64,000 bases of DNA. Source: Botryllus schlosseri (Eukaryota). Shown here in pieces: positions 1-23,245 of this stretch. Under the pieces are notes generated by a model. It saw only the letters and a list, made by a program, of their open reading frames with translations, searched no databases and was not told where the DNA came from. Numbering within the stretch: the stretch's first letter is position 1; each line of letters begins with the position of its first letter. The stretch is from positions 9,424,001 to 9,488,000 of the forward strand of contig CM119378.1 in assembly GCA_051294905.1 (NCBI GenBank), in the 5' to 3' direction. The translations under genes were made by a program, and so were the position numbers.

Positions 1-2
1 GG

Positions 3-4104: not shown

Positions 4105-4354
4105 ATTTTGTTTTTATAGTGCAGCTCCACAACGATTGTTATGCGAGTAGTCCACACTTGTTCGGGTTACTTCCTAGTAAAGCGTTGCCTTTCGTTTGCT
4201 TTAGTATCCTGACGACGTCTGTAAATGGTGATTGGAGCAACAACAGTTGTAGGATTGTTTCTTCTCAAGTTGACAATGACCCTGGGGTCCAGAATTTTAA
4301 TCTACCTTTATCTACTGATAATCTATAAGCTTTAATACAACCAAATACTCCAAT
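4105..4354 (-). other. Putative R/U5 part of the 5' LTR
   Basis: 250 nt between the SL copy and the PBS, with no AUG, two ATTAAA hexamers, and an end of ...AAAACAAAAT abutting the PBS. Boundaries cannot be confirmed without the second LTR. Confidence 0.5.
4330..4354 (-). other. Genome-encoded copy of the stolidobranch ascidian spliced leader
   Basis: ATTGGAGTATTTGGTTGTATTAAAG versus the 24-nt Halocynthia-type SL ATTGGAGTATTTGGTTGTATTAAG (recalled from memory), differing by one inserted A. Not followed by a GT donor. Confidence 0.8.
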
Positions 4355-4427: not shown

Positions 4428-5244
4428 CAATTATAACACAAGGCATGGTTTAACCTATACATCATCATACACAATTAACAAACATTTTCAATACTCCAAG
4501 GTTTGTTTTCGCATATAATTGATGCGACGGCCTTTCCTGCCGTAAATATCAATACATTTCAAATATCAATTCCTATTCATCATAATATTCTTCAGTATAC
4601 TTGCGATTATAATGTTTCAATCAATTATAACATATCAACATTAAGGACGTCATGTCTTCAGTGCAATTAAAATCACTATGATCCTCTTAATCGGACCGCA
4701 TGATACTACCCTTAACTAAGATGCCACTTAATACAGGCATTGCAGATTGTTCAAACAGGTTTTAGTGTTCATTATTTAGTTAATTTAATGGTTTAGTTGT
4801 TCAAGATTTTATAAGATTTTATATTGTTTTTCATTAATTATTTATTTAGCCTATAATAAGGGTTCGCACCGTAAACTTCGGATTTTGTTTCCCTAAAACT
4901 AGGGCTTCAATCCCTAGGGTCCTGCTTAAAAATAAGGGCGTAGCAGTGTATAACGCCTTATATACATACTGTAGGGATGACGAGGCCCCACAGTATTAAA
5001 TTCATTCGCAGTTAGCAAAACAGCAATAATCCGTACAAACTGTAAAACATTTCTGAATATAGGTTGACCAAACCATTCAATAAACCGTGAACGTGACGGA
5101 ATCAATTTTCTGTGCAACAAAATACAATAAAATGACTCTATGCAAGACGCAATAGAGATTCTTGACCATTCTATATTCCGTAGGTCAGTTATAACACTTT
5201 ATATACATACATGAAAACAATAGCATTCCTGGGCTTAATATTTC

Positions 5245-5694: not shown

Positions 5695-5749
5695 ACTTTT
5701 AATTTTTCTGAAAGCAATTAATCATCCAGTTAAGGTTCTATTTGGTCAT

Positions 5750-5810
5750 GCAGACGGAAATGGGGTAACTCAATGTAAAACTCAATTAAATTGGCATACA
5801 CGTCATACAT
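5750..5810 (-). promoter_or_regulatory. Promoter-like block, copy 2 (upstream of a family A gene)
   Basis: Aligns with 4366-4427; contains CGGAAAT and a CRE-like TGACGT. Confidence 0.55.
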
Positions 5811-5860
5811 GATTAATAGACATTCAACCTAGCAAAAAATACAATATACAATCCAGGCAT

Positions 5861-6316: not shown

Positions 6317-6452
6317 ATTTTCTTAATATAGAGAATTTTACGTTGATTATTGGACCGGAAACTTTTCTTACTGACATTTTTAACACATATAAGTATAACA
6401 ACACTTCCAAAATATTCAATAATTGTGATGAGCATACTGGATGCATAGTAAT

Positions 6453-6908
6453 TTACTTAGCATACATATCAGTCCAGTTTCTTGCCGTTCTTTGATAGCA
6501 ATCATAGTCATCCCTATACAGTCTAGCGCTCTCAACATCCATTGGATCTTCTGGATTAGGGGAAGCCAATAATGACGAAATCGAGACCAATACTTTTCCC
6601 AACGTTAAAGCGGGTGACCATTCATTTGCAAGAATGTCAATACATATGGTACCCTTACGGCTTATATTCGGATGGAAAATCTTGGTTTCAAATTTGATCT
6701 TCGGAGGCTTGAATGGATATTCCGTTGGAAATTCAATTCTAAGAAGAAATGTTCCTTTTTCATATGGTGTTTTTGGTGGTCCTCGCAAAAGTGCTTGCCA
6801 AACATAGATATCCGACTCGTCCAATGGCCCTGCTTGCAAAATTACAGGATTTGTTCGTATTTCTTGATTAATTTTTCGCCGTTCAACGTATAATCTATGT
6901 TTTGCCAT
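6453..6908 (-). CDS. Ubiquitin-conjugating enzyme E2 (UBC4/UBE2D-like), intronless
   Basis: FPTEYPFKPP, HPN motif, and catalytic Cys in FHPNISRKGTICIDIL...WSPAL. The ATG is at 6908; the ORF track start at 6932 is a TTG. Confidence 0.95.
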   Translation of the reverse strand: MAKHRLYVERRKINQEIRTNPVILQAGPLDESDIYVWQALLRGPPKTPYEKGTFLLRIEFPTEYPFKPPKIKFETKIFHPNISRKGTICIDILANEWSPALTLGKVLVSISSLLASPNPEDPMDVESARLYRDDYDCYQRTARNWTDMYAK

Positions 6909-6968
6909 TCGATGCAGACTTATACTATCCAATAAAACTTACACACATAAAAGAAAAGGGGAACATCA

Positions 6969-7493
6969 CTAATTCAATCGTTTATCCATAGCGTACATGT
7001 CACGTGAAAATCCGGCAATAGTTCTGCTAGTAATGTTCCAATCTTCATCAACATTAGCTATAGCCAATACATATCGTAGAAATAAGTACAAATAGTACGC
7101 AGGACTTTCTCCAAAGTTTTCTTCCACAATGCGCTCCAGTACTTTTTTTGCGCATTCCAATTGTTCCGCCACCTCATGGTCCCGGTATAACCAGACAAGA
7201 AAATCTTTCAATACATACTCCATGTCATTGGCTGTCAACTTCGGAAAGTTTTCTATTCTTTCTTTTATTCGTTCATGTACAACTCCCATCTTTAGCCAAG
7301 CAACTCTGCTGTCAGGTATCGTAGGGTATAGACACTGTCTGAACTTGTTCCGATTCAATTCCTTCTTCTGGGGATCTTTAGGCACATACTCATACTTTTC
7401 ATGATTAACTTCCAACATGTCACAATCAAAGATCAAATAAATTATTAGTGTCTTAAAATTCCTTACACAAAAAACCCAAACATTATTAAACAT
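6969..7493 (-). CDS. Accessory protein (174 aa), unknown
   Basis: Intact ATG ORF inside the array with an SL-like relic 9 nt upstream; no recognised domain. Confidence 0.7.
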   Translation of the reverse strand: MFNNVWVFCVRNFKTLIIYLIFDCDMLEVNHEKYEYVPKDPQKKELNRNKFRQCLYPTIPDSRVAWLKMGVVHERIKERIENFPKLTANDMEYVLKDFLVWLYRDHEVAEQLECAKKVLERIVEENFGESPAYYLYLFLRYVLAIANVDEDWNITSRTIAGFSRDMYAMDKRLN

Positions 7494-7651
7494 TCAACGA
7501 ATCTTAATCAGCAAACCAACTTAATTACACACATAAAAGTTTTTAATTCTAGTTGTTATATTAGATATAGTACATGGTTTTTGAAATCACAAAGTTCTTT
7601 ATATCCAATTGATATAGTGGAAAATTTGATGCATTATATGTATCATTTCAG

Positions 7652-8047
7652 TTAATCATCTTTCAAACATCCTTTTATCCATTGTTCTGAAAAGTTCTCC
7701 TTCATGGGATGCATACGAACAATATGTTGGTACCAAAGAAATTTGGCTTCCTTATAGTTTCCCAGTGTAATAATTGCAATCCTATTATGTTCTTTGATAG
7801 CAGCATGATAACCCAGAGCCTTGCCTTGCGGAGATAATGCACTCCCGTAAACTTTGTCAACATACAGCTTCAGCATTCCAACAATGTCATTGGGTCTTGT
7901 CATAGCCCATCTTTGCCATCTGTCGGAAATTTCCACATCTTCTTCATAATATTTACAGAACATGTCAAAATAATATTTCAAGTCGCACACTGCAGATTCA
8001 TATCCCATTCGCAATGATTCCTGGTTACTTCTATTTCTTTGAGACAT
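7652..8047 (-). CDS. Accessory protein, family A (131 aa)
   Basis: HNRIAIITLGNYKEAKFLW...RMHPMKENFSEQW. Confidence 0.8.
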   Translation of the reverse strand: MSQRNRSNQESLRMGYESAVCDLKYYFDMFCKYYEEDVEISDRWQRWAMTRPNDIVGMLKLYVDKVYGSALSPQGKALGYHAAIKEHNRIAIITLGNYKEAKFLWYQHIVRMHPMKENFSEQWIKGCLKDD

Positions 8048-8052
8048 TCTTC

Positions 8053-8508
8053 TTAATCGTGTAATATAACAATTTTCGAACAGGCGTCTTCTAAAATCGG
8101 AATAGCAACAGTTTCAAATTCTCGAGCATTCAGAAGTAATGTTGCAGAATCTTTTAATTCCATTTGTGGTAATCTTTCATCCAGAAATTCTTCTGGTAGA
8201 TACTTATGAGCCGGATGTAATTTTAGAACAAGTCCAAACCATGTATATTGGGCCAGATCAAAATCTTTTGTAACAAAAACGCGAGCAATATCACTATGTG
8301 CGTCATAAAGCTTATCAAAAAGCTTTTCTGTCACATTCGCAAAACAATGATGAAGGTATTTCTTTATTAATTTTTTGAATTTTTCCTTTGGGGTATTTTT
8401 CCATATCTCAAAATTTTGATGATGGTATTCCTGTTCAAACTCATCATAGTATTCATTAATTTGTTTCTTGGCTAGCGTAATTTCCCAATTCTCTAATACT
8501 CTAGTCAT
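8053..8508 (-). CDS. Accessory protein, family A (151 aa)
   Basis: HSDIARVFVTKDFDLAQYTW...LHPAHKYLPEEF; an SL-like relic directly abuts the ATG. Confidence 0.8.
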   Translation of the reverse strand: MTRVLENWEITLAKKQINEYYDEFEQEYHHQNFEIWKNTPKEKFKKLIKKYLHHCFANVTEKLFDKLYDAHSDIARVFVTKDFDLAQYTWFGLVLKLHPAHKYLPEEFLDERLPQMELKDSATLLLNAREFETVAIPILEDACSKIVILHD

Positions 8509-8637
8509 CTTAATACAGAATAAAATACTTTAAAATCATATGTTCAATTTTACGCGCAAAAGTAACTAGTAACGTTATGCATTATACATATGCATCAAGA
8601 GCATTCATGCCACAAAATAATAGTCCTGCCTGCTCCA

Positions 8638-10329
8638 TCAAGCTCTATACACCTTTATCTTTTCCAGTATTGTTTCACCACAAATGTTGCATCTTTCGGT
8701 ATTTGTTGCACATTTTTCACAACTACATAAATGTCCACAAGGTATGAAAGTAATTTCACTTTTGTTTCTCTTGCAATTTTTGCAAAGCACAACCTCTTGT
8801 ATTTCTTTCAAACTTTGCGCGATCTCATCCACCGACATTGTTTCTGCAACTGCTGCTTCTTTCGTTTCTTTGTTGTTGTTTACTTCGTGATTATTTTCAG
8901 ATATACTATCGCCTTGTTGTGTTGTTTTCGTTGGACTGGCGGTAATTGTATTTACTGTCTCTAGTAAATCCTGAATTATATCACCAGTAGAGAAAGGATC
9001 ATTAATCTGTCTATTTATAGTTCCTTCTATTTGATCTCTCGTAAATCCCATGTCTTCCAGTTGCATCCTGTTTATGTATTGTCTAGATAACCTTGGTCGA
9101 TTATGGTTCCTTCGTATCTCCTCTCGTGGTGCATCAAGACATATTGCATTCCTTATCGATGGTCGATTGAGATTGGGATGTTCATCTCTTAGTCGTAAAA
9201 CGAAATCAATACCTTTCATTTGCAAAACATATTCACAACCAGGAAACCACTTTGCATGTTCTGTCCACGGCTCATCATTGTAGTTCCAGTTTTGTAATCC
9301 TCCATTGCAGTAAAAGCATTTCGCCCTGTCCGAATCCCCTAAATAATACATACCCGCTTTAGCCAATTGTTCCGTTGTTGCGAGGATCCTGGGCCATTTT
9401 TCATTAAACGAAGATATTCTTTGCTGTAACGATGTCATATGCAAATTTATCGGGTAAAGGCAAGGGAATCTTTCCACCAACTGGAGTTGTTCTTCTGGCG
9501 ATGGATCCGGAGGTTCTCCCCTATTAGTAGTTAACCTTTCAATTTTTATTTTAAGTTCATTATCTGCCTGATTTCTCTCGGAGTCTGTCAAGGGCATATT
9601 TCCTGCATACTCGTTATTTGCCATTTTGCATTTTGTAAAATGTCTTTTATGTTGTTCAAGGACATTATCAGTGGGTGCCCAATTTCTCAGTACTCCTGAG
9701 CATGAAAAACATTGCGCTCTGTCAAGGTTTCCCAGGTAAAAAAATCCCTGTTTTGCCAATTCCCCTACCAAGTATGGAGTAGGATAGGAAGGCCATTTGT
9801 CAAAGGTTCTTCTTCTCTCTAGTTCACTCCTCAAATTTGCTGATCGCAATGAAGTCTCATGTTCTTGGTCACAAATGTTCGCAAACACGGTTTGTGGTAA
9901 GGGACATTTTTCCTCTTTGATAGTCGGTCTTTGCACATTCCGATTAGTTTGCTGACTTCTTGTAGTAAGGTTAAGGTGGCACCTCATTTGTTCAAAAAGG
10001 AGCCTCCTTAAGTAATTTGAAATAGGCAAGTTATAACCATGTTGTATGGTCACCATGTCACAAGTAGATTTATGCCACTTGTCATCAAAAGGATCATCTC
10101 CAGTGACCCATTTTTCCACAGATACGCCACAGCAGTAACATCTTACTCTATCTTGAAATCCTGTCCAATAGAAACCAGCAGCGGCTAGATAGCTCGGTAT
10201 CACAGGAGTTTCTTTCGAAAAATGTTTGAACGTTGCAAGTCTGTAATACTCAACCCGGTGATCTCCAGGTGGAATATAAACGCAATTATGTCCAGGAGGA
10301 TCACGATCTCTTTTCATCAGAATGCCCAT
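8638..10329 (-). CDS. iap: Inhibitor of apoptosis protein (3 BIR, UBA-like segment, RING), 563 aa, intronless
   Basis: Three BIR repeats (LAAAGFY...C..C...W...D...H...C pattern), LEDMGF UBA-like segment, C-terminal RING CKNC...PCGHLCSCEKC...CNIC ending IKVYRA. Confidence 0.96.
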   Translation of the reverse strand: MGILMKRDRDPPGHNCVYIPPGDHRVEYYRLATFKHFSKETPVIPSYLAAAGFYWTGFQDRVRCYCCGVSVEKWVTGDDPFDDKWHKSTCDMVTIQHGYNLPISNYLRRLLFEQMRCHLNLTTRSQQTNRNVQRPTIKEEKCPLPQTVFANICDQEHETSLRSANLRSELERRRTFDKWPSYPTPYLVGELAKQGFFYLGNLDRAQCFSCSGVLRNWAPTDNVLEQHKRHFTKCKMANNEYAGNMPLTDSERNQADNELKIKIERLTTNRGEPPDPSPEEQLQLVERFPCLYPINLHMTSLQQRISSFNEKWPRILATTEQLAKAGMYYLGDSDRAKCFYCNGGLQNWNYNDEPWTEHAKWFPGCEYVLQMKGIDFVLRLRDEHPNLNRPSIRNAICLDAPREEIRRNHNRPRLSRQYINRMQLEDMGFTRDQIEGTINRQINDPFSTGDIIQDLLETVNTITASPTKTTQQGDSISENNHEVNNNKETKEAAVAETMSVDEIAQSLKEIQEVVLCKNCKRNKSEITFIPCGHLCSCEKCATNTERCNICGETILEKIKVYRA

Positions 10330-10569
10330 AGTTTCAATTCGGTCATTTCTCGGTGTAATTGCTTTCGATGGAACAGGCGTTCAATAATACAGATCAAAAT
10401 GTCTAAATATAACCATACCAATCCAACATTCTAGTAATAATACATAAACATTCTGTTAAAAAAAAATATCATTATATAAGATTTCTCGAGGTTCCAAATT
10501 AGCATTGGTTCGATAAATTCCATGGATTGGGTGTAAAGTCATTATTTAATTGTCAATATGTGACAACAG

Positions 10570-11229
10570 TTAATGGAGATGTATGTCCAAAATATAGGAA
10601 TTTTCCAGATATTGATTCATTGACTGGGCTTTCTTATCTACTTTCTTCGAGTATATGTATATATATGCATCCATAACGGAGGTATCAGAACTCAACGACA
10701 TATAACCTTTTACTCCTAGGTTGGTTTGGCTGTGCCAAGTCCATTTGCAATTCGCATCTGTAACATAAGCCAGACTATTTGCACATACTAACAATCTTGT
10801 ATGGCCCATTATTACTCCTCGTATCACTTCATATATTACTCGTCTCATACATAGGGGAGGTATTCTTCGGACAACTCCCATCAAAGTTTCCGTAATTATA
10901 GTCCATGTGTCGTCATCGGGTCGTATTGTCTGTTTACTCCATACTATGAGTCGTTGTCGTGAGGAATCTTTCACAATGGCAGAATCCTGGGAGTCGTCAG
11001 AGTCCGTATTACTAGAAATTTCGTCCTCCGGCGTTTCTCCATGGGGTTTCCTGTCGCCACATGGAAGTTGTCTTTTGTACCAATTATGTTCTTGTTCAAA
11101 AAAGTTTTTCAACATATCCATCAGCAACTTTAGACATCCAGTATTTTTTCGCACGTCGATTTTATCTAGTTGATTTATTAATTTACAAAAAATAGCAGTA
11201 TTATGATCCTGTACTTCAGATAGATACAT
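10570..11229 (-). CDS. Accessory protein, family B (219 aa)
   Basis: YEVIRGVIM...WHSQTNLGVKGYMS shared with 14247-14813. Confidence 0.8.
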   Translation of the reverse strand: MYLSEVQDHNTAIFCKLINQLDKIDVRKNTGCLKLLMDMLKNFFEQEHNWYKRQLPCGDRKPHGETPEDEISSNTDSDDSQDSAIVKDSSRQRLIVWSKQTIRPDDDTWTIITETLMGVVRRIPPLCMRRVIYEVIRGVIMGHTRLLVCANSLAYVTDANCKWTWHSQTNLGVKGYMSLSSDTSVMDAYIYIYSKKVDKKAQSMNQYLENSYILDIHLH

Positions 11230-11482
11230 TTTATCCCTGCGAATATAACAATAATGTGCAATAACAATAAAAGATCCTGATTCAAGATTTCAATGCATCA
11301 AATCTCGATATTAGATATCATATAACATACATGTAATACATTCACTCACTATGACACAACAATAATAGAAACATTTCATAGGTTTTCTAAACATGTAGAT
11401 TATCATACATGCCTCTATTGCTTCCCTAAAGATTCAAATCTCTCATCTCTAATGATATTGCACATAGTGACCAACATTGTTT

Positions 11483-12430
11483 TCAATGTTCCAGTGTCCT
11501 AAAATTAGGATCAAGAGCAATTATCTCTAAAAATAGTTGAAACCTTTCCTCCAAGGCCACCCTTCTTTTCCAGAGCCACTCCTGTAAGTAATGAGGAATA
11601 AGTGATCTTGATACCCCATTCAGCCTTCTAATAGCAGCTTTAAAAAAATTCCAAGACACCTCGATCAATTGTGTATTTATGCCTTCTGTAGTGACAAATT
11701 CGCGATCATGATTAACTACTGAATGTTTATAATTCATTCCCAGGCTTTCCAACTTGCGGTAACTGGCAAATGAATCAGTCCATATAGTGGATCCCTCTTT
11801 TACGTGTTTCATAATTATTTCTGATAATACAGAGGTTTTTCTCCCTTCTTCAGGTACCAATTCTGCAAACATTTCTCGCGTTTTCATATCTATTCCAGCC
11901 AAAACCCAGCGTTGGCGTATTATTCTTCCACGATTAAATTTTCTTTTGGCCACAAACGTCTCATCAATTTGAATTACATGTGATTTACCTTGTGATATTC
12001 CCCCTATTAGGGTACCTCTTCTTTCCATTTCCACAGAGCATATCTTACGAAGTTTCTTGGTCCAATTCACCATTGTTCTCTTGCTGACGTGTGCTTCAAA
12101 AGCTATTTGTCGTTGAGATACATCTATGGTCCAAAGATAAATCATCATTACAAGTTGGGTGAGTCTTATTTTACTTCCTTCAAATAGTGATCCTTTCCTT
12201 ATGGACGTGGTAGTCCTGCACTTTGAAACCGGACACCTCCATCTATATCCATCCATAGTTCTTTTGCATTTTTCTTCATTCATTTGTTGTCCACAATTAA
12301 AACATGTTGCCTTTTGAACAAGGAGTTGCCGTGATCGCAGAAACTTTATACATTTTCGTTCACTTGATATTATACCACATCGAGCAAGATTGAATAGATT
12401 TTTTCTTTTTCTGGATTCTTTAGTCTTCAT
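11483..12430 (-). CDS. IS1595/ISXO2-like (Merlin-type) DDE transposase, 315 aa
   Basis: N-terminal Zn ribbon (CFNC...WRCPVSKC), HTH-like region, catalytic QIDET / WTDSFASY / TQLIEVSW, C-terminal YLQEWLWKR. No TIRs seen. Confidence 0.9.
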   Translation of the reverse strand: MKTKESRKRKNLFNLARCGIISSERKCIKFLRSRQLLVQKATCFNCGQQMNEEKCKRTMDGYRWRCPVSKCRTTTSIRKGSLFEGSKIRLTQLVMMIYLWTIDVSQRQIAFEAHVSKRTMVNWTKKLRKICSVEMERRGTLIGGISQGKSHVIQIDETFVAKRKFNRGRIIRQRWVLAGIDMKTREMFAELVPEEGRKTSVLSEIIMKHVKEGSTIWTDSFASYRKLESLGMNYKHSVVNHDREFVTTEGINTQLIEVSWNFFKAAIRRLNGVSRSLIPHYLQEWLWKRRVALEERFQLFLEIIALDPNFRTLEH

Positions 12431-12499
12431 ATTTATTTAAAACTTTATTGTCTTTTCAAAAGTAGTTTTCTGTATATACAAACATTGGAAAGTTAAATT

Positions 12500-13006
12500 T
12501 CATGCAGGCACTTTCAAAGTCATAAATTGACAATCGGCTTCTTTTAATGATATTCCCTGCGTCTTTGCCCATGCGTAGATCTGAACTTCCGGAAAGATTA
12601 TCCACATTATGAGATCTCTTTCAGAATCTCCCCTTTTTATAAATTCCCTCATTTCAGGATTTACCCTTTTCAAAATTGTTACCCAGTTTATGCAAATTTC
12701 TGCAAAAGCCATTTGTATAGGTTTTTCAGGGTAAATGCTTCCTGTATAAATTTCTTCCCACTCATTTTCAACCAGATGTTTCCCAGGCCAATGATTGTTG
12801 TATGTGGTGACACCATACTTTTGTTTCCAATATAGTAGTCGTGGATTTGATTCGTCATACATTATATCACATAAGTGATCCGTCAATGTATATGTTGTTA
12901 ACAGAAACTTCAGCGACTTTAATCCATTGTCTATTAGTGTTTCTTTTTGGGGTATCCATGTCGTATGTTGTATTTCTGGATCATCACAACGTAATCCCAA
13001 ACACAT
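12500..13006 (-). CDS. Accessory protein, family C (168 aa)
   Basis: MCLGLRCD, NPRLLYWKQ and ERDLIMWIIFPEVQIYAWA are shared with 16238-17098. Confidence 0.8.
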   Translation of the reverse strand: MCLGLRCDDPEIQHTTWIPQKETLIDNGLKSLKFLLTTYTLTDHLCDIMYDESNPRLLYWKQKYGVTTYNNHWPGKHLVENEWEEIYTGSIYPEKPIQMAFAEICINWVTILKRVNPEMREFIKRGDSERDLIMWIIFPEVQIYAWAKTQGISLKEADCQFMTLKVPA

Positions 13007-13110
13007 TTTTATAATTTAAGTAAATCCTTTATACAACATATTTAAATTCAGTTACATAGTACCATATTACAATTATTACACCAATTTTCAATTTATATAC
13101 TTAATCATTT

Positions 13111-14160
13111 TTACATTAGTTTAATAATAACTAGCCAAACAATAACGGTAAATGTACACTTTGAATGTATAGTCACACGATTGGAAAGACTTTTCATTTC
13201 GTCATCATATAGTCTTGATTGTTTACGTACATAGGGTCTTCTGGTAGGTGTTTCATTATTATATCTATTTAATTTTAAAACTTCCAGATCTGGTAATTTT
13301 CTCAATAGGGAGTCATTAAGAAATTGAACATGATTATAACTAAGATCAATTGTATGCAGATATCTGAACGATATGTTGGAGGACAGAGAAAAATATTGCA
13401 AGTTATTATAGTACAACGTTAATCTCTCTAAATTACATAAAGATTCAAGTATTGTCATATCAAATTCCACCAGTTTATTTTCATCCAAGTTCAAAGTTTC
13501 CAGTTTCCTCAGTCCTTTGAACGCCCCTTCTTCTATAGCGCTTATTGCGTTTCTTGATAAGTCTAGTATTCTTAAATGACGTAAATGAATGAATGTTCCA
13601 TTCTTTAGTTTCTTTATGACATTGTTGTCCAAATATAGTCTTTTTAACTTTTCCATGCTTGCAAATTTCGATCCTTCTATTTCCGCCAGCAAATTACTGC
13701 TTAAGTACAAACTTTCCAGTTGGTGTAAGCCTGCAAAGCTTTCTTTTTCAATTCGTGTGATGTAGTTTCGCATCAAATTTATCTCCCTAAGCTTTTCATT
13801 TTTGCAGAAGACCCCTCCTGGTATGGTTTGGATTTTATTCCAACCACAATGCAACACCTCTACGTCTTTATACTTTTCCAATTGTCCTTTGGTTATTTCC
13901 CGTAGGCAGCTGTCGTTGATGAATATCTTTATTGTGTTCCGACAAGATTTTGCCAGGTATATCTTGTCAGGATCCGGAATTCTTGTATAACTCGAATGGT
14001 CACACCAAAGTACCAAATTGCTTCCTTGCATGCATTCCGGGTATAACATGGTTCGTCTTTCATCCATTGTACACTTCTTTTGTTCTATTGTTTCCGGATA
14101 AATAGCATAACACATGCCTAGCCATAATACTAGTAGTTCCACTCGGTTCATTTTACTCAT
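13111..14160 (-). CDS. Signal-peptide-bearing leucine-rich-repeat protein (349 aa) with a hydrophobic C-terminus
   Basis: Signal peptide (VELLVLWLGMCYA), Cys-rich N-cap, about 9 24-aa extracellular-type LRRs (LxxLxLxxNxL), terminal CTFTVIVWLVIIKLM; no TIR domain. Confidence 0.92.
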   Translation of the reverse strand: MSKMNRVELLVLWLGMCYAIYPETIEQKKCTMDERRTMLYPECMQGSNLVLWCDHSSYTRIPDPDKIYLAKSCRNTIKIFINDSCLREITKGQLEKYKDVEVLHCGWNKIQTIPGGVFCKNEKLREINLMRNYITRIEKESFAGLHQLESLYLSSNLLAEIEGSKFASMEKLKRLYLDNNVIKKLKNGTFIHLRHLRILDLSRNAISAIEEGAFKGLRKLETLNLDENKLVEFDMTILESLCNLERLTLYYNNLQYFSLSSNISFRYLHTIDLSYNHVQFLNDSLLRKLPDLEVLKLNRYNNETPTRRPYVRKQSRLYDDEMKSLSNRVTIHSKCTFTVIVWLVIIKLM

Positions 14161-14246
14161 GAATTAGATAACCCACTTTGTTACTCTATACCTTCGAAAA
14201 AGTGTCCTTTGTAAGTCAAAATCTTATTTACAGTCGTTGTCATTAC

Positions 14247-14813
14247 TCATGATTGTTCCGGTATTATAGAGTCAATGTTCACACTTTCCCCTTCGTAGGG
14301 GTAAGGATGTATTTCTATACGTCTTATCCTTTTTGTTCGCCAATGTATTGAACTTGAATAGCCTTTTAGGCCCAAATTATTCTGGCAATTCCATTGTTCC
14401 ATATGTGGCGGATCTTTACAAATTTCTCTCTCCTGGTACACGTCCTTTGTTATATTAGTGTTTGTAAGTTTCATCACAAGTCCTCTAATTAATTCATACA
14501 ACATGACTCTTCTTCCCAAAGAGGTGTATTCCTTTGCTCTTATTTCAAATATCTCTTCTGCCACATGGTTGAATTTATCAAGAATTTCTTCGGTTAATTC
14601 CTCATCTAGGGCTACCTCTTCTAGGCCATCGTCTGTTTGTTTAACCCAATCGGCTTGGTCCGTAAGCAATTCCCATACTTTTTCTTTAAACTGGTATCTC
14701 TCATATTCGCTGTTATATTCTTTAAGATTCAATAGATCCAACTCGTCATATACATCGTACAAATGACACCAATTTGTTGAATCGTAACCTTCAATATAAT
14801 CAAAATCTAGCAT
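14247..14813 (-). CDS. Accessory protein, family B (~188 aa)
   Basis: YELIRGLVM...WNCQNNLGLKGYSS. First in-frame ATG is at 14813; the ORF track start at 14870 is a TTG. Confidence 0.78.
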   Translation of the reverse strand: MLDFDYIEGYDSTNWCHLYDVYDELDLLNLKEYNSEYERYQFKEKVWELLTDQADWVKQTDDGLEEVALDEELTEEILDKFNHVAEEIFEIRAKEYTSLGRRVMLYELIRGLVMKLTNTNITKDVYQEREICKDPPHMEQWNCQNNLGLKGYSSSIHWRTKRIRRIEIHPYPYEGESVNIDSIIPEQS

Positions 14814-15888
14814 TCTTTTTTCAAACAAAATAGCAATTTCGCACAATTTACCGTTTTCAGGATATGACAATTCTCAAGACTCATGTTATTACTTTTACTT
14901 TTCACTCATAACTTATCAAGTATACTCCATTTATTAATTTATTAATCACCCAATACTTATTAGGCAATAAATCTCTCCCCCCCACAAGGGATTTAATTAT
15001 TTTATAATTTTCTATTTTCTGGTTTTTATTTATATAATTTTTTTTTCTCATTAAGATTTTATCTCTTATATAGCTTTTATCATTCGGTATTAGCAATAAT
15101 TTTATCATTTTTATGATCTATAAACACAATCTGACATTTTATTTTTTTGAAGATTTTTTTAGTGGGGAAAATAATACGACATATCAATTTAAACATTATT
15201 AAAAGATAATATTACTCATCATCCTTGCCTTCCCTTCCATAAGAAATGTTTTGACCCGAGTTTCTCTGAATGGCGAAACTAATTTATTCAAGGATCATTT
15301 ATACAAGTATTACACAATTACGTCTCATAGAGACTATTGTAGGAAGGGTGCCATGAGACAAGAATGTGAGCAATTTGCAATATGTTACTTTACTAAACTA
15401 TTACCTAATTAAATATTGGGTAAAAGACTAGAAGCTAAGCTAATTTTTTACGCATCTTATGTATAGTACCATAAAGAATTTACATAATCAGAAAAAATTT
15501 TAATAACAGCAATAACTCAAATAGCAGCAAATTAGTGTGAGGCTCACACAAAGAGATCTTGGCAGAGCGCAAAGCGTGGGCAAAACGGAAAAAATTACGC
15601 TCACGTCATTCTTTATAAAATATAAAATAATTCGATTAGCATAACATATAAGTATGAACACGAGGTGATTTGTGATAGGGTAGGTTGTCTGGGGCCGTTA
15701 CAGACTAAATTTTAACACAAAAATTGCAGCCGAAAATTCATATATAACATTCAATATTATAGAAAACAACACCGTACAATTCTTCATAATTTACAATAAC
15801 AAGTTCTTCTCGAATTTAAAAAAGTTTTTGCAATAAAGATAGGTCGATCTTGCATTCAAGTACTCAAGTTCTCATAGTCCCCGGGATG

Positions 15889-16155
15889 TCATTCTAGGGG
15901 AGGTGATAGCGGGAACAATCCCAGCGATTGATCAATGTATCGGAATCTTTTAGTAAAAAGGGAAACTGTATTAATAACTCTGAGTAAATATATATCGTAA
16001 AATACAGGTATATAGTTTCCACTTTTGCTAATCTCAAGTTTCACTATACCCGGCTTCTATACTTTTTCCGTTAAGTTTGACCTTTTGGTAGTGGTGCCGA
16101 ATTGATAAATTGTCCTAAACCACCACCGGTCAGCCCTAAATAATTCAGTTATCAT
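15889..16155 (-). pseudogene. Possible disrupted accessory gene (89 codons with one internal TAG at 16057-16059)
   Basis: ATAAG-ccATG start resembles the neighbours; MITELFRADRWWFRTIYQFG...EKV*KPGIVKLEISKSGNYIPVF continues in frame. Confidence 0.35.
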
Positions 16156-16237
16156 GGCTTATCTAATAGGCTATCCCTAAAAGTCCAGATCAATCAAGAT
16201 AATTTCTAGATCAAACTAATAGTAGTTTATTTTAAAA

Positions 16238-17098
16238 TCAGCCCATATTACCACTAGAGGCAGCATGTGATCCATCTACACTGGGTCTCCGTAAAACTAC
16301 CATTCGGGTCGGAGCCTCTGGTCTGTTTGGAAACCTACTGTCTCTACTGGTTGAAGATTCAATATCAAACATCAATGTAGTTTCCGAATTGGTGTTTTTG
16401 ACTAATTGTTTGTCTCCCTCTTTTTTTAACGAGCTTTTAAAGGTTGAATCCGACACTTGGTCAATCGGTAGAATAAAAACGCCTCCCAAATAACCAAACG
16501 TGCTCGTGGACCCGTATGTAAATCTCCATTGTTCTAGATTTCCCCCAAATAGGAACTCAAATTCTGCATCCATCCTACATCTCGTAAAACAAACTGTTCG
16601 CATGTTTTTTGCCCCCCGATATTGTTGTAACAGGAGAGCTATGGCGGTTATTATCGCTTCTGGATATAACACATAAAGCACGATATGTCCTTTATCTCTT
16701 TCAGTGTTTTGGTCTAGTCCTTTGTGCATACTACAAGCCTCTTTCAAATAGTCATGGCATAATGTCATGAGTTCAAAAATCTGCCCGGTATTCTTGAAAT
16801 ACGGTTTTACGTGTCTCATAAGGTAACATTGTTTACATTCACCGACCCCTACCGGGTGAAAAGGCTTTCCTATTTTTATCCAGTCCTCCTTGGTGTACAT
16901 ACTTTGTTGCCAATATTGTACCCTTGGATTGTCCCGCTCACAAGTGCCGAACAAGAGGCCCATCAAACGATCCCGAACCGGCGCAGTTTTTATAGTTTCC
17001 ATTACCATCTGCTGCCTTTGCGTAAGATCGAAATGCATTGCCCACTCGTAGACAACCTTGTGATCCGTATTAGGGTCGCACAACAGCCCGTAGCACAT
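16238..17098 (-). CDS. Accessory protein, family C (~286 aa)
   Basis: MCYGLLCD, NPRVQYWQQ, ERDKGHIVLYVLYPEAIITAIA. ATG at 17098; the ORF track start at 17110 is a TTG. Confidence 0.8.
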   Translation of the reverse strand: MCYGLLCDPNTDHKVVYEWAMHFDLTQRQQMVMETIKTAPVRDRLMGLLFGTCERDNPRVQYWQQSMYTKEDWIKIGKPFHPVGVGECKQCYLMRHVKPYFKNTGQIFELMTLCHDYLKEACSMHKGLDQNTERDKGHIVLYVLYPEAIITAIALLLQQYRGAKNMRTVCFTRCRMDAEFEFLFGGNLEQWRFTYGSTSTFGYLGGVFILPIDQVSDSTFKSSLKKEGDKQLVKNTNSETTLMFDIESSTSRDSRFPNRPEAPTRMVVLRRPSVDGSHAASSGNMG

Positions 17099-17283
17099 TT
17101 CTTTCTTCAATTAGTTCCCTATTTATAACTCTTAAATACAGAAGGTTTCCTCTTTTATTCATACAACTCTCAGTAAATTGTTTCATATTGTAAATCAATG
17201 TGAAACAGAAAATATACATTGGTTAAATTTTTAATCATACAACCTTACCAATCATGTGAGTCCAACAATATGCTAGAATTTAT

Positions 17284-17802: not shown

Positions 17803-18944
17803 TCTTTAATTTACGACACCGTGTTATTTTTACACCTTAAAAATAATAATGTTTCTTTAAGTCGAGATTATTGTAAGATATCGTTAATGATATTCAAAAC
17901 ACTGAATCGTGCTAACTCTTTATTAATCTTACTTGGGGTTAATTATTCCTTTACCGGGTGAAGAAAAGTGTTATCTTTGGCCATTTGTCAGCCTATCAAT
18001 TCTTGATTTCCTCAACTCAGGGCCGGCCAATTCGTGGCCCCCGAGGTAATTTCCGAAATTGCCAATATCTAGAATGGATTGCACTGATTGGGAACTTGCA
18101 AGGTCGAGCAAAATTTATATTTGTTTGGATGTGATGACTAAAATATCTATTCCTACGTATTGGCAGATCCATCAGCCAGTCGCATAATGGTATATTTTTA
18201 TACACTACCATCAAGCAGAATAATTTGCACCAGATACATCAAAAACAAAATTTTCACAAGCTAAACACAATATTTTGCCACACGATTCCTTGTTTTTAAT
18301 ACTGTTGCCCATCTTATGACCATGGAAAAACGGCCAATTTATTCAGACTGAGCCTAACTATACTCGCGATTTCGGACCAAGGTGTCGTTGAACATGTGTG
18401 ACCGTGCGGTTGCGTTTGCGGTAATATTGCTGACTATGAAACCTAGATACGGAAAGATTGACGCATGTTGGCTTTTGTTATTACTATGGCCATGCGCCAC
18501 ATAGCCTGGTCCGCGTAAACTCAGCCTAACGGTGTACGGTAAGCCCGCCACAATGCCAAGTTATAATATCATTGTTCTATGAACTTCAAAAGCTTTTCGC
18601 GCTTCGCGCGGTAGTGGCATGCACAGTATTTCGTCAATCGAATGTGACCTTCGGGCTGAAAAAGATTGCCCAGCCTTGACTAATTCAAACTTTTATTTTG
18701 TATCACATACCATCCTAATTGTTCTCTCTCTCTTAACATCTGCTAAATAACCTGTCATTATTCCATGGTTACACAAAAATTCCCTTTTTCAAACGACAAC
18801 ACAGTCGTCCTCAGTATTTAATTGTTTCACTATGAGGCACAGAAAACACAACATCTCTTGTAACAGTCGCAACGTAATTAATGTACATTTACGATTTTGT
18901 TGATCACATCAATTTGTACATTTTGATCACATAGTTTTCCAATT

Positions 18945-19466
18945 TTACTCGTTATTCCAGGGGCGCCAAAACATTCTATCAAGGCGCCTGAGAGTTGCCT
19001 CGTCAAGAGGTCGTAACTGTTCATGATCTGAGGATGGATCGGAATCGCTACTACTAACACCAGAATCAGTATCGGGTAGAGTATTCAAACTTTCATTCGA
19101 ATCTGTCAAATCACTAGATTCGGAATTCGGATAAGTTCTCAACTCGTGGTCTGGGAAAAGATAGGACTCTATCCAATCATGTCCAGAATCACATCCGGAG
19201 CCAGACAAAATACTCGAACTTTCATCTGAGTCAGTGAGATCTAATTCCGAGTCCGTATCATCTCCCCAGATCGAAGGGTTTCTTTCAAAATAGCTTTCCA
19301 AAGTGGCCTCGTCAATTTCTTGTTCATTTTCCTCATTTTCATCTGCTTCAGGCGATGTTTGGCATGATTTGAGAATTTCATCTATATTTTTTAATACAAC
19401 AATCCACCTTCCAGTCCAGATTTGTTCATCCAGAACAGAGGCTTCCATGGCATCAGAACTTGTCAT
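18945..19466 (-). CDS. Acidic Ser/Asp/Glu-rich accessory protein (173 aa)
   Basis: Intact ATG ORF, same strand as the array; internal repeat ELDLTDSDES / SSDLTDSNES. Confidence 0.7.
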   Translation of the reverse strand: MTSSDAMEASVLDEQIWTGRWIVVLKNIDEILKSCQTSPEADENEENEQEIDEATLESYFERNPSIWGDDTDSELDLTDSDESSSILSGSGCDSGHDWIESYLFPDHELRTYPNSESSDLTDSNESLNTLPDTDSGVSSSDSDPSSDHEQLRPLDEATLRRLDRMFWRPWNNE

Positions 19467-20041
19467 GGCTACAGTTATACCAGCAAAGAGATGTATTGCT
19501 GTTTTTTGACCCTATATATACCAAGTCTGTGGAAATGTAATAGGTCTATGTGTCATAAATTTTCCAAGAATGCCACAGGAATCTTTCTTTTTTCTTAGCG
19601 AGTTCACACCACAATACGCAGTGATCATGCTATTCGTCTTATTTTGATTCATCACCCTTTTTTACATGCGCCACACTAGGATATAACCATGATATCCATT
19701 ATCCTAAATCAATCTCGATGTTCATCTTTACTGCTACATTATCCGTATTTTATATGAGGCCTCGCTCAAAGTGAGAACTTACTATCAATTATAATCAGGT
19801 GAATTAAAATTGTAGGTGATTGTACCAATTTTGTGTCCTGTTTCTTCATCTAGCACAGGGGTCTCAAACTCAAACGTGCTTGCGGGCCATTTTCCTAGTT
19901 GGGACGACGCCGCGGGCCGCAGCATTTATAGGGGTATTCTATGTCTTTCCAAGTAGGCCTTATTTGGCGGGAATGAATTTTTCTATTGAGAGTGAGTCGA
20001 TCCAGCAGACTGACAGTAACCACACATCGCCAAAATATGAT

Positions 20042-20317
20042 TTAGATTTGTATAAATTTAGGCCTGGCACGAAAAGAATCATCATATTTATAACTATTTG
20101 AATAGAATTGTTGTTGTACTTGACATAAATTAACTATAAGATATAGACACCATATGGGCGGACAAACGTATGATGCCATCATAAAAGCCATTACATTATA
20201 ATTTTCAGCTACTATGAATATTTTGGATCCAACAGACCGATAACAGAGTCTGATCTGATCATTGTAATTCCAATCACGATTCGGGTATACTTTTGAGAAG
20301 TAGGCTATTAATCTCAT
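20042..20317 (-). CDS. Possible small ORF at the edge of the array
   Basis: ~91 codons from the ATG at 20317; no recognisable motif or paralog. Confidence 0.25.
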   Translation of the reverse strand: MRLIAYFSKVYPNRDWNYNDQIRLCYRSVGSKIFIVAENYNVMAFMMASYVCPPIWCLYLIVNLCQVQQQFYSNSYKYDDSFRARPKFIQI

Positions 20318-20399
20318 GGCCAAATATCTTCAAATATAGGAGCAGAAAAAAATATAAATATAATATAAATATATTAATGAATGTGTCCTAGTGATTGAA

Positions 20400-23211
20400 A
20401 TGTGGGAACGCCGGACGTCCTATTGCTGTTACATCGTTGGAGCGTACCACTACAGTACTCGGTACCTTTAAGTGGCCCTAATAACATGATTTAGCGACCA
20501 AAGATGTAACTAACAGAATGCCAATGGTTTTCATAACCATACTTGCTTGGTTAGCGAAATACCAAGCTGCGACCTTCTGATCTATTACAAGTTCTTTTAT
20601 TGTCAAACAATTGTACCAATTGGCCATTAAATACCAGATCTTTGTGACGGGTCATCGCTTACCTAACGCACCTATCTTTCGGTTTTAATATCAAATTATA
20701 GGGATCTATGCCTTTATTGCTCAGTTCATAGCCCTCATTCAGTACCGTTATTACTATGTCCAACACTTCATCACCAAGTTCGTGCTATCTTACCCCAACT
20801 CTAATTTTCTTAAATACATACATGGAGTATGACTATGTTATTTTAATTGTCGTATGGCCTGTATTCCATCTCTAATACACCCTTAATGAAACTATAACTC
20901 ATGCCTCCTTCAGATACCAAGTCATCAACCTACATTCTAAACTCGGTTTACTTCCTTATAATCATGAACCGCCGGTATGTGAGATATAGCCTCAGTGCAT
21001 GGGGCATGCCATTCTTTTTTTGTTATCAATTCCGAATTTGCGTAATAAATCATAATCAGATTCAGATGGACATGTTTGATCATTGTTAACGCGAAAAATT
21101 CTAAAAATCAGGCCTAATTTTTGGTTCGTGATCCTCTGTGTGGCACGCAAATCAAGAAAGTACTAACTAGATATGCGCTTACTACTTAGCTAATTAGTTA
21201 CTGTATAATTCTGGATATTTAGCTGTCTGAATCTTCTAATCAATGAGTTACGTCAGTCATACATCAACAATTCTTGTTCTTGGTCCATTGCCAACATGAG
21301 CACTGCGTAAAAAGCTACGGGCTGTACCACAATTTCTCTCACGTTTACTGATTCAATCTAACTTGGATATTACCTTAAGCGCTCATTCATTTACCAACCT
21401 TGATATCGAGGCTAAAAGCGACATAAATTAAGTGGTAGCAGGTCATGCGCCATTTTCCAAGCACGATTTTACGCCATTTTGGTTACATACATTCTTGCTT
21501 GGCTCAAACCAGCCGCGTGGTGGCGCCTACAATCCACTAATTCAATATCACTCCTTTACTTACTTTAATTTGTAAACTTATTTCCCAATTCGCATAGTCT
21601 TGCTGCCAAATGCAACAATTCAAATTATCCTGTAGTCACTCAAATTGGCAAGGTCCCACCGACCATTCTCAGCCTTATTCATAGAAAATGCAAAAACCAA
21701 CACGCGCTGCTTCATACTACACCACTGTGTATTGTTATGTAATTGTACTCTAGATTACTAGGTCACTATTGTTGGTACATTATCAATAAACTATCTTTTC
21801 GCACCCAATCTGTCCCAAATAATTACTTCTGCAAACTATAATCCCAAAATGCAAATCTTGCTACCCTCAGAAATCAATGGACTTCCTTAATTATCATATC
21901 TTTTGTTTGTTCTTTGATACTACAAACTTCGCACTATTGCTCAACACTAACAAACTAGCGTTTACGCTGCTGAATTATCTATAATTCATGCGCCGTCTCC
22001 AATACGCAAAACTTACTTTTGTAAATGCAGACTCGCAACAATAGTTACTTTTAAATAAAATACCTGTGCTACATACATGCTAATGGCTATTATCGAAAAC
22101 AAACATCTATTACTACCCAAGTTTCTCGTAGTAATGTTTTGTAATCTACCTACTCGCTTGGGTATTTTTAAATCTGGCCAAAATTACATTTATTTTTAAG
22201 ACTACCTAATTAGTTTGACCACCACTATTACTGGCACAAACCCGATACCTTGCTCTTAATTTCACTTACTTGTAACTACCTGACATTTGAGGCGTGATAT
22301 GAGAAAATAACATTCTCATCTATTTCAGCTTAGTGCTCCTAGATTAATTTAATCACAAGGTGGCTAGCGCAAAAAGTCCTATAACTGTCTCAAGCAATTG
22401 TTCCATCGTTTCAAATATTTTGGAGAGACCGGTTGGCGGAGGCAGCTATCATTACACAAATTACCATACCCGCACGACAATTTCTAGTGAATTTTAATCA
22501 TGTCCAAACAATTAGAACACACTTGTAGTAGAAGAGATATTGTAGAGATCTCCAACACACTAGTTTTGAAATGGACATCTCCAATAGGGCACGAGCAAGC
22601 ACATTTTTTCCTGTTTTAGTAATCCAGTACGCAAGAAGGTTTTGAAAACAGTGCGATCTATCAAAGCCGAAGTTTGTCATGGCTTACAGTAGATTTACAA
22701 TTTTATAGCCCTTTTGTGTTATGACGTACACAATTGTTAGTAATCAATAATATTCGCCTCGCACTGCAATGGGAGTTAGTCCATTTCAGGAAGTCACTCT
22801 ATACGGCTAGGCATTGCTCCACTGCATGCTTGGCGTCGTATTGTTGCATCAGGTTTTAGCTAGGACGACCTGAGTTGTCCGCAACAGCACAATTTAGTTT
22901 TGAAATTATAGACCAGAGTTCTTCAAACGGAGTTACTGCCTAATATGAGATATATCAAAACTTGCAATATAGTGTAACCTTCGAACGGTATTTACAGGGA
23001 TGTACCAAATCCGTAATACAATGAACTGAAGACCAGCTTTCGCAAATGTAGGTTTATGGTTCAGCGTGAGCTAGGACATAGGAGAGCGAGCAACGTGGTA
23101 TTATGTTATTTTAGTGTGATAATTTATACCCTTTGATCGAGAGAGATATTTCACCTGTTTATTTACTCGTCGGCGATAAACCAACGGTTTTGTTTGGTTT
23201 TCAAAAATATA

Positions 23212-23245
<34 letters not shown>

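Follow-up and report, generated by a model that had tools for sequence, protein, structure and literature searches.

Three kinds of background bear on the locus described here. Spliceosomal acceptors normally end in YAG, members of the Caulimoviridae and Hepadnaviridae replicate without an integrase from circular DNA, and Merlin transposons, as Feschotte reportedly laid out in 2004, start with GG and are flanked by 8-9-bp target duplications. In dinoflagellates, retrogenes with a relict spliced leader (SL; there DinoSL) mark passage through reverse transcription, and the relics have been proposed to be promoters (PMC6050394, PMC5585692). SL relics by themselves are a known kind of trace. In ascidians, the operons of Ciona intestinalis are resolved by SL addition (PMC1488885), and trans-spliced 5' regions of Ciona are generally GU- and AU-rich (PMC11155486). 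The array of accessory genes analyzed here resembles the DinoSL retrogenes in carrying, upstream of genes, the DNA trace of a leader added after transcription, part of which is preferentially kept. Unlike those retrogenes, however, these traces lie in a chordate mobile element, only the 3' end survives, the genes are mostly paralogues within the element, and the likely role is that of a splice acceptor rather than a promoter. As in the Ciona operons (PMC1488885), same-strand genes are tightly packed, with a single SL for them all and an acceptor-like site immediately ahead of each downstream ATG, but here the array sits in a mobile element, the sites mostly end in AAG like the SL, and resolution by trans-splicing is a prediction.

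Our window, the whole 64,000-nt stretch of Botryllus schlosseri contig CM119378.1 (positions 9,424,001 to 9,488,000), holds most of a multi-copy element of ~40 kb with GG..CC ends and short inverted repeats, of which the accessory array is cargo. Target duplications of 8 bp flank it in 6/6 copies, and its right end lies 2.9 kb outside the window. The main parts of the carrier are as follows.

1..1007, minus strand: start of the pol frame, with a protease-like motif read by eye; the frame runs 2.6 kb past the window
938..3778, minus strand: gag-like ORF encoding a CCHC knuckle; its Pfam zf-CCHC match (E 5e-4) narrowly misses the cut-off
11483..12430, minus strand: Merlin/IS1595-type transposase 2, 39% identical to transposase 1, with a TACAG site 39 nt upstream
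19500..29500, no strand: ORF-poor interior of the element, 90-99% identity between copies
29593..40767, minus strand: second glycoprotein-like gene, broken by a 7.7-kb insertion (31921-39612)
40855..43371, minus strand: env-like protein of 838 aa, with a basic cleavage-like site and hydrophobic segments in its sequence
43501..44340, minus strand: Merlin/IS1595-type transposase 1 (Pfam DDE_Tnp_IS1595, E 7e-10)
44717..44739, minus strand: left terminal inverted repeat, starting GG; 44 genomic matches with at most 2 mismatches
44740-44747: 8-bp target duplication adjoining the left terminal inverted repeat

Past the window edge, pol encodes reverse transcriptase (RT), RNase H, and Tpt1/KptA, giving the order gag, then protease-RT-RNase H, with the protease assigned by motif alone. 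Pol has no integrase and carries Tpt1/KptA instead, as do 4/6 relatives scanned; as for the RT, named relatives are 21-26% identical. The second glycoprotein-like gene is a single 1160-aa frame in two other copies. The env-like protein had no Pfam match, and its nearest ESM Atlas clusters are class I fusion proteins (0.88-0.90, low recognition), a lead only.

The CCHC gag, the protease-RT-RNase H order, the Gypsy-type RNase H families, and the env-like gene recall Ty3/Gypsy elements (Metaviridae), env-bearing errantiviruses, and Troyka/Kuafuorterviruses (PMC12440569, PMC11673190). Unlike Ty3/Gypsy and Troyka, this element has no integrase and no LTRs (we found no long terminal direct repeats), and has Tpt1/KptA at the Pol end, GG..CC inverted ends, 8-bp duplications, and a size of about 40 kb. 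An ISXO2-like DDE transposase, GG ends, and the 8-bp target duplication are shared with Merlin/IS1595 DNA transposons, but the retrovirus-like gene set, the signs of an RNA intermediate, and the presence of two transposases are not. The carrier lacks what defines an LTR element and exceeds a Merlin transposon. As in the Caulimoviridae and Hepadnaviridae, there is an RT without an integrase, and transcription of the genomic RNA from a circle would account for the gene order; the differences are an animal host, an own transposase, precise insertion, and an env-like gene, and the circle is hypothetical here. Teratorn likewise combines the genome of a virus-like agent with a cut-and-paste transposon responsible for integration, although it joins piggyBac to a DNA herpesvirus (PMC5601938, PMC10175614), whereas here Merlin is joined to a reverse-transcribing element using the host SL. 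In the open-access literature searched, we found no description of an element of this type.

The preliminary description of this DNA had proposed that a 24-mer in it is the host SL, and RNA reads bear this out. The 24-mer is the start of 478 reads in run X19 and 519 in run X23, with the template-switch oligo directly 5' of it and many different sequences downstream. One post-SL sequence led to a host gene, directly behind a CAG acceptor, the sole host acceptor mapped. An intact copy of this host SL precedes gag.

4330..4354, minus strand: intact DNA copy of the host SL in the sequence, with one extra A here

An SL stands upstream of gag at 16/20 pol-selected loci on C1-C4, and across 11 pol-selected copies it is 98.6% identical, compared with 56-67% for its flanks. 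Because it is far better kept than its flanks, it looks renewed in every cycle, which points to an RNA intermediate. The 4 nt preceding it are identical in only 5/29 near-identical pairs, and in one copy the SL junction falls at the following AG, 7 nt further downstream. Both the apparent renewal and the variable junction tend to favor a step through RNA over purely DNA-based (cut-and-paste) movement.

The genes of the array itself stand close together on one strand, with acceptor-like sites ahead of their ATGs; among them are the following.

6453..6908, minus strand: E2 ubiquitin-conjugating enzyme sharing 78-80% identity with an intronless cluster of the host
8638..10329, minus strand: intronless IAP (3 BIR + RING) of ascidian type, best matches Styela clava IAPs (41-45%)
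13111..14160, minus strand: intronless LRR protein (Pfam LRR_8, E 1e-75)
18945..19466, minus strand: accessory ORF of 173 aa, with TGTAG 2 nt before its ATG

To characterize the upstream sites, we used 45 accessory start codons from 9 element copies and 15 families, a set of related genes chosen after an earlier result on these sites had been seen. The actual signal is a T-rich tract ending in TAAG, 0-45 nt upstream of the ATG. TTAAG occurs in the 60 nt before 24/45 ATGs (shuffle mean 5.6, maximum 12), against 1/45 at -60..-120, 3/44 after stops, and 6/45 antisense, and TGTATTAAG occurs in the same interval before 6/45 (0.1 in shuffles). SL 3' ends of at least 10 nt precede 8/45 ATGs in 6 gene families. 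Shuffles give 0.27, and permuting the SL with its last 3-5 bases held fixed gives 0.55-1.2 (p 0.002-0.016). The earlier claim of an excess of SL-like ends ahead of accessory ATGs is thus confirmed across copies, by position and by strand.

This enrichment makes it very improbable that the pattern as a whole consists of chance matches in AT-rich, T/G-skewed DNA, although chance does account for some individual picks. All eight sites listed in the preliminary description are exact on the minus strand. Against the full 24-nt SL, their local alignment scores are 14-25 out of a maximum of 48, and for 7/8 such scores are common in shuffles. When the 150 nt upstream of 14 window ATGs were compared with dinucleotide shuffles, p was 0.058, while at 60 nt it was 0.004. 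Only 8509-8529 beats shuffles within the window (per-gene shuffle p=0.01-0.02): the 4.4-19.5 kb region contains 1 site of that quality, where shuffles contain 0.4. For the others, equally good sites in the region and in shuffles number 48/38 (6919, and likewise 14912), 31/24 (17230), 22/15 (7503/13027), and 150/125 (6322). Conservation between copies separates them further.

6322..6330, minus strand: TATTAAG site, 5 nt before ORF 5861-6316; AG in 25/25 copies
6938..6957, minus strand: conserved T-tract and GTGTAAG, 29 nt before the E2 ATG; AAG at -27..-32 in 25/26 copies
7462..7521, minus strand: two AG-ending sites (7503, 7462) before ORF 6969-7493
8509..8529, minus strand: best SL relic, directly adjoining the start codon of ORF 8053-8508; same in 6/6 close copies
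10403..10422, minus strand: earlier-listed IAP site; AG not conserved between close copies
11237..11255, minus strand: T-rich CAG site of canonical type, 7 nt upstream of ORF 10570-11229; a diverged copy has TAG
13027..13040, minus strand: SL-3'-like site, 20 nt before ORF 12500-13006; 3' 11 nt with 1 mismatch
14912..14930, minus strand: earlier-listed site, 98 nt before ORF 14247-14813; same in 6/6 close copies
17131..17143, minus strand: conserved site, 32 nt before ORF 16238-17098; TTTAAG here, TCTAG/TTAAG in other copies
17230..17252, minus strand: earlier-listed site without terminal AG, not conserved
17836..17850, minus strand: T-rich TTAAG site not in the earlier list, 33 nt before ORF 17284-17802; 6/6 close copies

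Three of the listed sites hold: 8509, where a diverged orthologue agrees with the SL at 15 of its final 16 positions; 13027, whose orthologue L112 has the exact 11-nt SL end; and 6322, with TTAAG in 24 of its copies. Two more hold in part. At 7503, AG is found in 21/22 located copies and TTAAG in 14, but the ATG common to a diverged copy is at 7418, and the second site, 7462, lies nearer to it. Site 14912 is conserved and resembles the SL 5' end, yet its score is at chance level, it lies far from its ATG, and short upstream ORFs are present. The remaining three do not survive comparison. At 6919, AAG occurs in 3/26 copies, and the conserved AAG is the one at 6938; at 10403, AG is lost in 2/6 close copies (a T9-AACAG site near IAP ends at 10453); and 17230 ends in AAA and is missing from 3/6 close copies, the conserved site being 17131, where a swapped upstream segment between copies also ends. 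Since 10403 and 17230 are not conserved, the deletion pattern they were said to share is unsupported. Mosaic patches between copies occur away from these sites too.

If the sites were ordinary trans-splice acceptors that had converged on U-rich sequence plus TAAG without any SL ancestry, one would expect what most of them show, a match to only the last 4-7 SL bases. The general GU/AU-richness of Ciona outrons and the G/T skew of the sense strand also suit this reading, but three observations leave it unlikely. A T-rich tract plus AG precedes 38/45 ATGs, against 26% of 751 background windows, and 29/38 of these sites end in AAG rather than the usual YAG (67/194 in background). The one mapped host acceptor, the env site (canonical T-rich ACAG ending at 43442), and the transposase 2 site all end in CAG. 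Finally, some sites match 10-16 SL bases, and the 8/45 with at least 10 ordered bases exceed permuted SLs. The antisense control for T-rich plus AG is high (21/45). With a single host acceptor mapped, a host preference for TAAG is possible, which would speak against SL ancestry.

The preliminary description had instead read each motif as the decaying relic of a whole SL, brought in with a captured host mRNA or by duplication of a promoter+SL cassette that gave each gene an SL-mimicking start. Positions 13-20 of the SL do match upstream of ATGs (p=0.001), but positions 1-12 gave no signal there (p=0.99). At equivalent positions AAG, TAG, and CAG replace one another, and at three sites AG is retained in 21-25 of 22-26 copies while neighboring bases vary; TAA is an upstream stop at only 1 site. 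Ordinary CAG/TAG acceptors at the same position in some genes and some copies suggest that splice acceptors fit the pattern better than SL-mimicking starts. What stands of the degenerate relics is a 3' half ending in AG, not whole SLs.

The genes themselves give this reading mixed evidence. In its favor, E2 and IAP are of host type, as had been claimed, and intronless, homology between E2 and a host gene can be followed weakly as far as the AAG near -28, one relic spans 16 nt, site 14912 has its 5'-like resemblance, and dinoflagellate relics offer the promoter precedent. The closest host E2 genes found are themselves intronless and without the motif, so the intron-loss test is inapplicable to E2. 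The border between SL-like and host-like sequence at E2 is ambiguous, and the nearest genomic matches of IAP are other repeated copies. Against it, 8/11 non-annotated array genes are paralogues of one another, suggesting that the array grew mostly by duplication within the element and not by host mRNA capture, and poly(A) remnants are absent after 16 genes (longest A run 3-6 nt). Cassette duplication fits poorly as well: only one piece of the pre-SL cassette is duplicated (4366-4435, with its copy at 5750-5818), and a TTTCAG site rather than an SL follows that copy.

5708..5818, minus strand: 70-nt pre-SL copy, then TTTCAG 13 nt before ORF 5245-5694

Taken together, we regard whole-SL relics as quite unlikely. 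We consider it probable that the motifs are trans-splice acceptors of an operon-like accessory array, many of them derived from the 3' terminus of the host SL and seeded by reverse transcription of SL-bearing RNA. Element RNAs would be trans-spliced by the host, and with every cycle the element's RT would copy into DNA the SL that heads the genomic RNA, ahead of gag. Occasionally, a template switch by RT to a subgenomic or host mRNA capped with the SL may install an SL at an internal gene, so that a gene is duplicated or captured or an old acceptor is overwritten. The SL 3' half, being itself U-rich and ending in AG, could serve as an acceptor and would persist, while the 5' half would decay. 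Counted against this explanation are the relatedness and after-the-fact choice of the genes, the possible host preference for TAAG, the high antisense frequency of T-rich plus AG, the missing poly(A) remnants and end junction, the mosaic patches elsewhere, and the ambiguous E2 junction. No read joined the SL to any accessory gene; depth was near zero in the two bulk runs, and the reads searched covered only 3-13% of each raw run.

Since the unit bounded by terminal inverted repeats encloses the SL, full-length RNA would have to come from a circle with joined ends. We give somewhat better than even chances to full-length RNA made from such a circle in the order SL-gag-pol-transposase-env-accessory genes, with the Merlin transposase in the role of integrase. 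A head-to-tail junction of the element ends was not found in the assembly, where episomes would not be assembled. The same circle could support cis-splicing, in which the leading SL on genomic RNA would be a donor exon spliced to env and the accessory genes, in the manner of complex retroviruses, and SL-like ends would come from back-copied spliced RNAs. GT directly follows the SL at 17/31 family loci, the env acceptor is strong and canonical, and the permuted gene order is retroviral; however, the subfamily of this window has no GT after the SL, the circle and its junction are not seen in the assembly, and the integrated array lies upstream of the SL, all of which makes cis-splicing improbable.

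The SL evidence bears on the main question about the carrier, namely whether it is a hybrid still passing through RNA or a DNA transposon with retroviral genes, and suggests that the element copies itself through host-spliced RNA, reusing the SL tail as a splice site for each gene. This is a concrete route by which a mobile element could gain and express new genes without promoters. Retrotransposons are usually ~10 kb (PMC6431247), far below ~40 kb, and an RNA genome of the latter size is brought within testable reach. More tentatively, with the odds somewhat against the full combination, the carrier may be a ~40 kb enveloped, integrase-less reverse-transcribing virus-like element with a circle, host-trans-spliced RNA, Merlin insertion, and dual use of the SL, which would be both the renewed 5' terminus and strand-transfer point of the genome and an acceptor that installs itself; if true, any SL-capped mRNA taken up by RT would bring its own expression site, and the accessory operon could grow.

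Two further features flank the pre-gag SL, the first in a region without a folding signal.

4277..4291, minus strand: TGGACC-loop-GGTC motif with a variable loop, about 60 nt after the SL; 30/42 SL loci examined
4490..4541, minus strand: conserved block some 135-150 nt upstream of the SL, with SL bases 2-11 at its end; 23/31 family loci

The 24-mer of which an intact copy (4354-4330, minus strand) precedes gag is the host spliced leader (SL), as the preliminary description held: 478 and 519 reads in two bulk RNA runs carry, directly 5' of the 24-mer, what we take to be the template-switch oligo, and then run into many unrelated sequences. It presumably also matches the published stolidobranch SL. 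The genome has 246 occurrences of its first 23 bases and 0 of the reversed control. One SL-read continuation maps in a host gene right behind a CAG acceptor, and the host acceptor baseline is this one gene because two of three read-derived patterns had no match in the genome. The Ciona SL likewise ends in TAAG (PMC7986045). At loci L001, L008, L022, L025-L027, L029 and L030 a perfect copy of the SL stands at the head of other, unrelated repeats. A first reading of L025 and L026 as SL RNA genes was abandoned; L025 runs into poly(A) within a MITE-like repeat, which makes SINEs or retrocopies headed by the SL the likelier identity of both.

Degenerate SL relics had been described ahead of many accessory genes, and all eight quoted strings were found on the minus strand, with the following outcome:

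6322, minus strand: SL-like string, upheld
6919, minus strand: SL-like string, not conserved across copies
7503, minus strand: SL-like string, supported in part
8509, minus strand: SL-like string, upheld
10403, minus strand: SL-like string, not conserved across copies
13027, minus strand: SL-like string, upheld
14912, minus strand: SL-like string, supported in part
17230, minus strand: SL-like string, not conserved across copies

Against the whole 24-mer these sites score 14-25 of 48, the score being rare at 8509 alone, and whole-SL local scoring of the window gives peaks within ORFs as frequently as ahead of them. The proposed enrichment upstream of 14 window ATGs fell short at 150 nt (p=0.058) and emerged at 60 nt (p=0.004), where TTAAG precedes 6 of the 14 vs 2.0 in shuffles (p=0.014). 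The SL-like signal from the window by itself is weak and 3'-anchored. By copy comparison, the conserved site for E2 is 6938 and that for the ORF at 16238-17098 is 17131. For site 7462, a search anchored on the site itself examined 26 copies and found it in all 22 that were located. Site 17131 reads TTTAAG, TCTAG or TTAAG among copies, and a swapped upstream segment there terminates at the AG or at most 25 nt from it; mosaic patches among element copies also occur away from this site. A tandem, two-round SL relic at E2 was considered and dropped, as the inner segment aligns with 5' sequence of the host and just 3 of 26 copies have the AAG of that segment. An Rfam gathering scan of the whole window gave 0 matches.

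To extend this across element copies, a listing from 15 element or SL-upstream stretches gave 84 sense-strand ORFs of 110 aa or longer. The enrichment set, chosen post hoc after this listing was seen, comprised 44 kept ORFs plus one internal ATG (45 ATGs from 9 copies and 15 families); the 40 ORFs left out were 15 env or glycoprotein, 6 transposases, 2 of an unclear pair, 3 overlapping or of other families, and 14 singletons. Within 60 nt ahead of the ATG, TAAG occurs at 31 of 45 (shuffle 13.8), TTAAG at 24 (5.6), TATTAAG at 9 (0.6) and TGTATTAAG at 6 (0.1), while TCAG, ACAG, TTAG and GTAG show no enrichment there. The motif lies 0-41 nt from the ATG, and TAAG is found in one or more members of 13 of the 15 families; none of five transposases has an upstream TAAG. 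Chance is very improbable at these counts. A stop-codon artefact as the cause of TAA(G) was rejected, as it applies at 1 site. TAAG is the motif of baculovirus-type late promoters; such a promoter was also rejected, the RNA polymerase gene being absent among the ORFs scanned.

The bases ahead of TAAG match the SL above shuffles (p=0.001), and those ahead of pre-ATG TAAGs do so above 244 other intergenic TAAGs (11.2 vs 5.8, p 2e-8), a comparison in which the most SL-like TAAG was used where several preceded one gene. At least 10 SL 3' bases with at most one mismatch precede 8 of 45 ATGs vs 0.27 in shuffled sequence (permuted SLs, p 0.002-0.016). A T-rich tract plus AG stands ahead of 38 of 45 ATGs (background 26%, antisense 21/45), 29 of these 38 sites ending in AAG, and ordinary CAG sites precede the genes at 10570-11229 and 5245-5694, env and transposase 2. 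Convergence on such sites, without SL ancestry, would account for the T-rich tracts and is unlikely beside the SL matches ahead of TAAG. The best SL 3' match ahead of an accessory ATG reaches 15 of 16 bases, which would suit the original idea of whole SL relics or of genes' own SL-mimicking starts; the match is limited to SL bases 13-20 (p=0.99 for SL 1-12), and we regard that idea as rather unlikely, and splicing in cis from an SL donor to these acceptor-like tracts as quite improbable. The motifs are probably SL-derived 3' ends retained as putative splice acceptors, so that the preliminary description was right in part in what it observed, and its mechanism needs recasting.

Depth over the accessory genes is near zero in the bulk RNA runs X19 and X23 and low, mostly on one strand, in the single-cell run X17. 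No SL-to-accessory joint is among the joints listed at near-zero bulk depth, with 261 loose ends outside that listing. X17 reads pile on one strand at 4067-4633; should X17 come from a 3' library, transcripts in the element's sense would terminate close to the SL. On the opposite strand, X19 has reads (19, 4 and 6) that join the SL to 15023-15029 and 14607; the joints near 15029 may be mismapped host mRNAs because the region is low-complexity.

The element's E2 shares 78-80% identity with intronless genes in a host cluster on contig C1, and a midpoint-rooted tree places the element E2s in one clade (94/93) adjoining the host-cluster E2s within an unresolved 18-sequence fork. Host homology spans the coding region and, weakly, ~28 nt of 5' sequence up to the conserved AAG; the 3' UTRs differ. 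From these comparisons, element E2 was likely captured from the host. The cluster holds ~20 intronless E2 genes (G000:C1:34.12-34.49 Mb, L151-L156) 53-80% identical to element E2, and two sets of near-identical dispersed copies (57% and 55%) are possibly cargo of other elements. IAP is ascidian-type, with its best protein matches in Styela clava and other ascidians, which makes a stolidobranch ascidian the probable host; its nearest genomic matches outside the element are other repeated copies. The BIR-domain matches in the genome (~100 listed; 51-61% to IAP residues 2-146) mostly come in pairs, inverted and 1-15 kb apart, across many contigs, which suggests another mobile family carrying IAP within long inverted repeats. 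Growth of the array by mRNA capture, as first proposed, stands for at most three genes on current evidence, which favours duplication for most of them: 8 of 11 unannotated array genes fall in three paralogue groups, and no poly(A) remnants follow array genes. An ESM Atlas search with a 151-aa family returned nothing above 0.85. One accessory family (ORF 16238-17098 and L111:6381-7292) has weak to significant PWP3A-B_C Pfam matches (E 3e-5, 6e-9), hinting at an old host origin.

Of 20 pol loci on contigs C1-C4, 16 have the intact SL at a distance of 4.2-5.7 kb upstream; in 11 pol-selected copies it is 98.6% identical vs 56-67% for its 24-nt flanks. Among 29 pairs with at least 93% identity immediately upstream, just 5 agree in all 4 nt ahead of the SL. 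The base at -1 is G in 11 of 31 (p=0.01 against a background of 17%, with copies that are not independent). One copy has its SL attached to the following AG, 7 nt further downstream, a shift that could come from alternative trans-splicing or from slippage between the two AGs. An 11-nt repeat of the SL end occurs at two loci. The two sides of the SL differ strongly in 25 of 63 closely related pairs, one pair lying outside the family. All these marks fit a junction that RT remakes with every cycle; the alternative is recombination combined with strong selection for an SL mimic. Should the RNA start at the SL inside the unit, a whole copy would require transcription across joined ends. We infer a putative circular form of the element; the assembly holds 0 head-to-tail end junctions. 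A block at 4490-4541 (minus strand), conserved across families, ends in SL bases 2-11 and is repeated up to four times at 57-nt spacing in some copies; single-cell reads pile there. At 4277-4291 (minus strand), TGGACC-loop-GGTC, with a variable loop, follows the SL by ~60 nt in 30 of 42 loci and is a candidate priming or packaging signal. No folding signal was found for the conserved block (z -0.29) or the SL plus 75 nt (z 0.64).

Downstream of the SL, gag with CCHC is followed by a 1205-codon pol frame with RT, RNase H and Tpt1/KptA (E 2e-10) domains, in which a domain scan found no integrase; RT or RNase H plus Tpt1 is common to 4 of 6 database relatives scanned. Scoring covered at least 52 copies of pol, and the frame is open in most of them. 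At the Pol C-terminus of L031 (7393-7920, minus strand), Tpt1/KptA keeps H-x-T and R-x-x-x-H-like motifs, and has an Ala where Tpt1 proteins of solved structure have the Arg of their 'IRA' motif. Other copies align to the window from 44742 down to pol. The unit is bounded by GG..CC inverted repeats that match imperfectly, and 6 of 6 copies are flanked by a target duplication of 8 bp. The ~39.9-kb unit runs transposase 1, env-like, glycoprotein-like, ~10 kb ORF-poor, accessory array with transposase 2, SL, gag, pol; the ~10 kb nearly without ORFs (19500-29500) are still 90-99% identical among copies. Troyka and Kuafuorterviruses, both LTR elements, were rejected as its identity. No pol relatives were confirmed in viral and metagenome contigs, and the open-access literature yielded no description of the element or of SL-derived sites inside any element. 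Two pol copies at G000:C5:10.286-10.303 Mb, 13.95 kb apart, share their 3' flank and represent a local duplication as opposed to a head-to-tail array. A 320-aa ORF at 48085-49047 (minus strand), without a Pfam match, presumably resembles a LINE RT C-terminus. The window copy carries a 7.7-kb insertion (31921-39612), missing in five other copies, in which tandem repeats are found together with a MITE-like inverted repeat (33611-34279).
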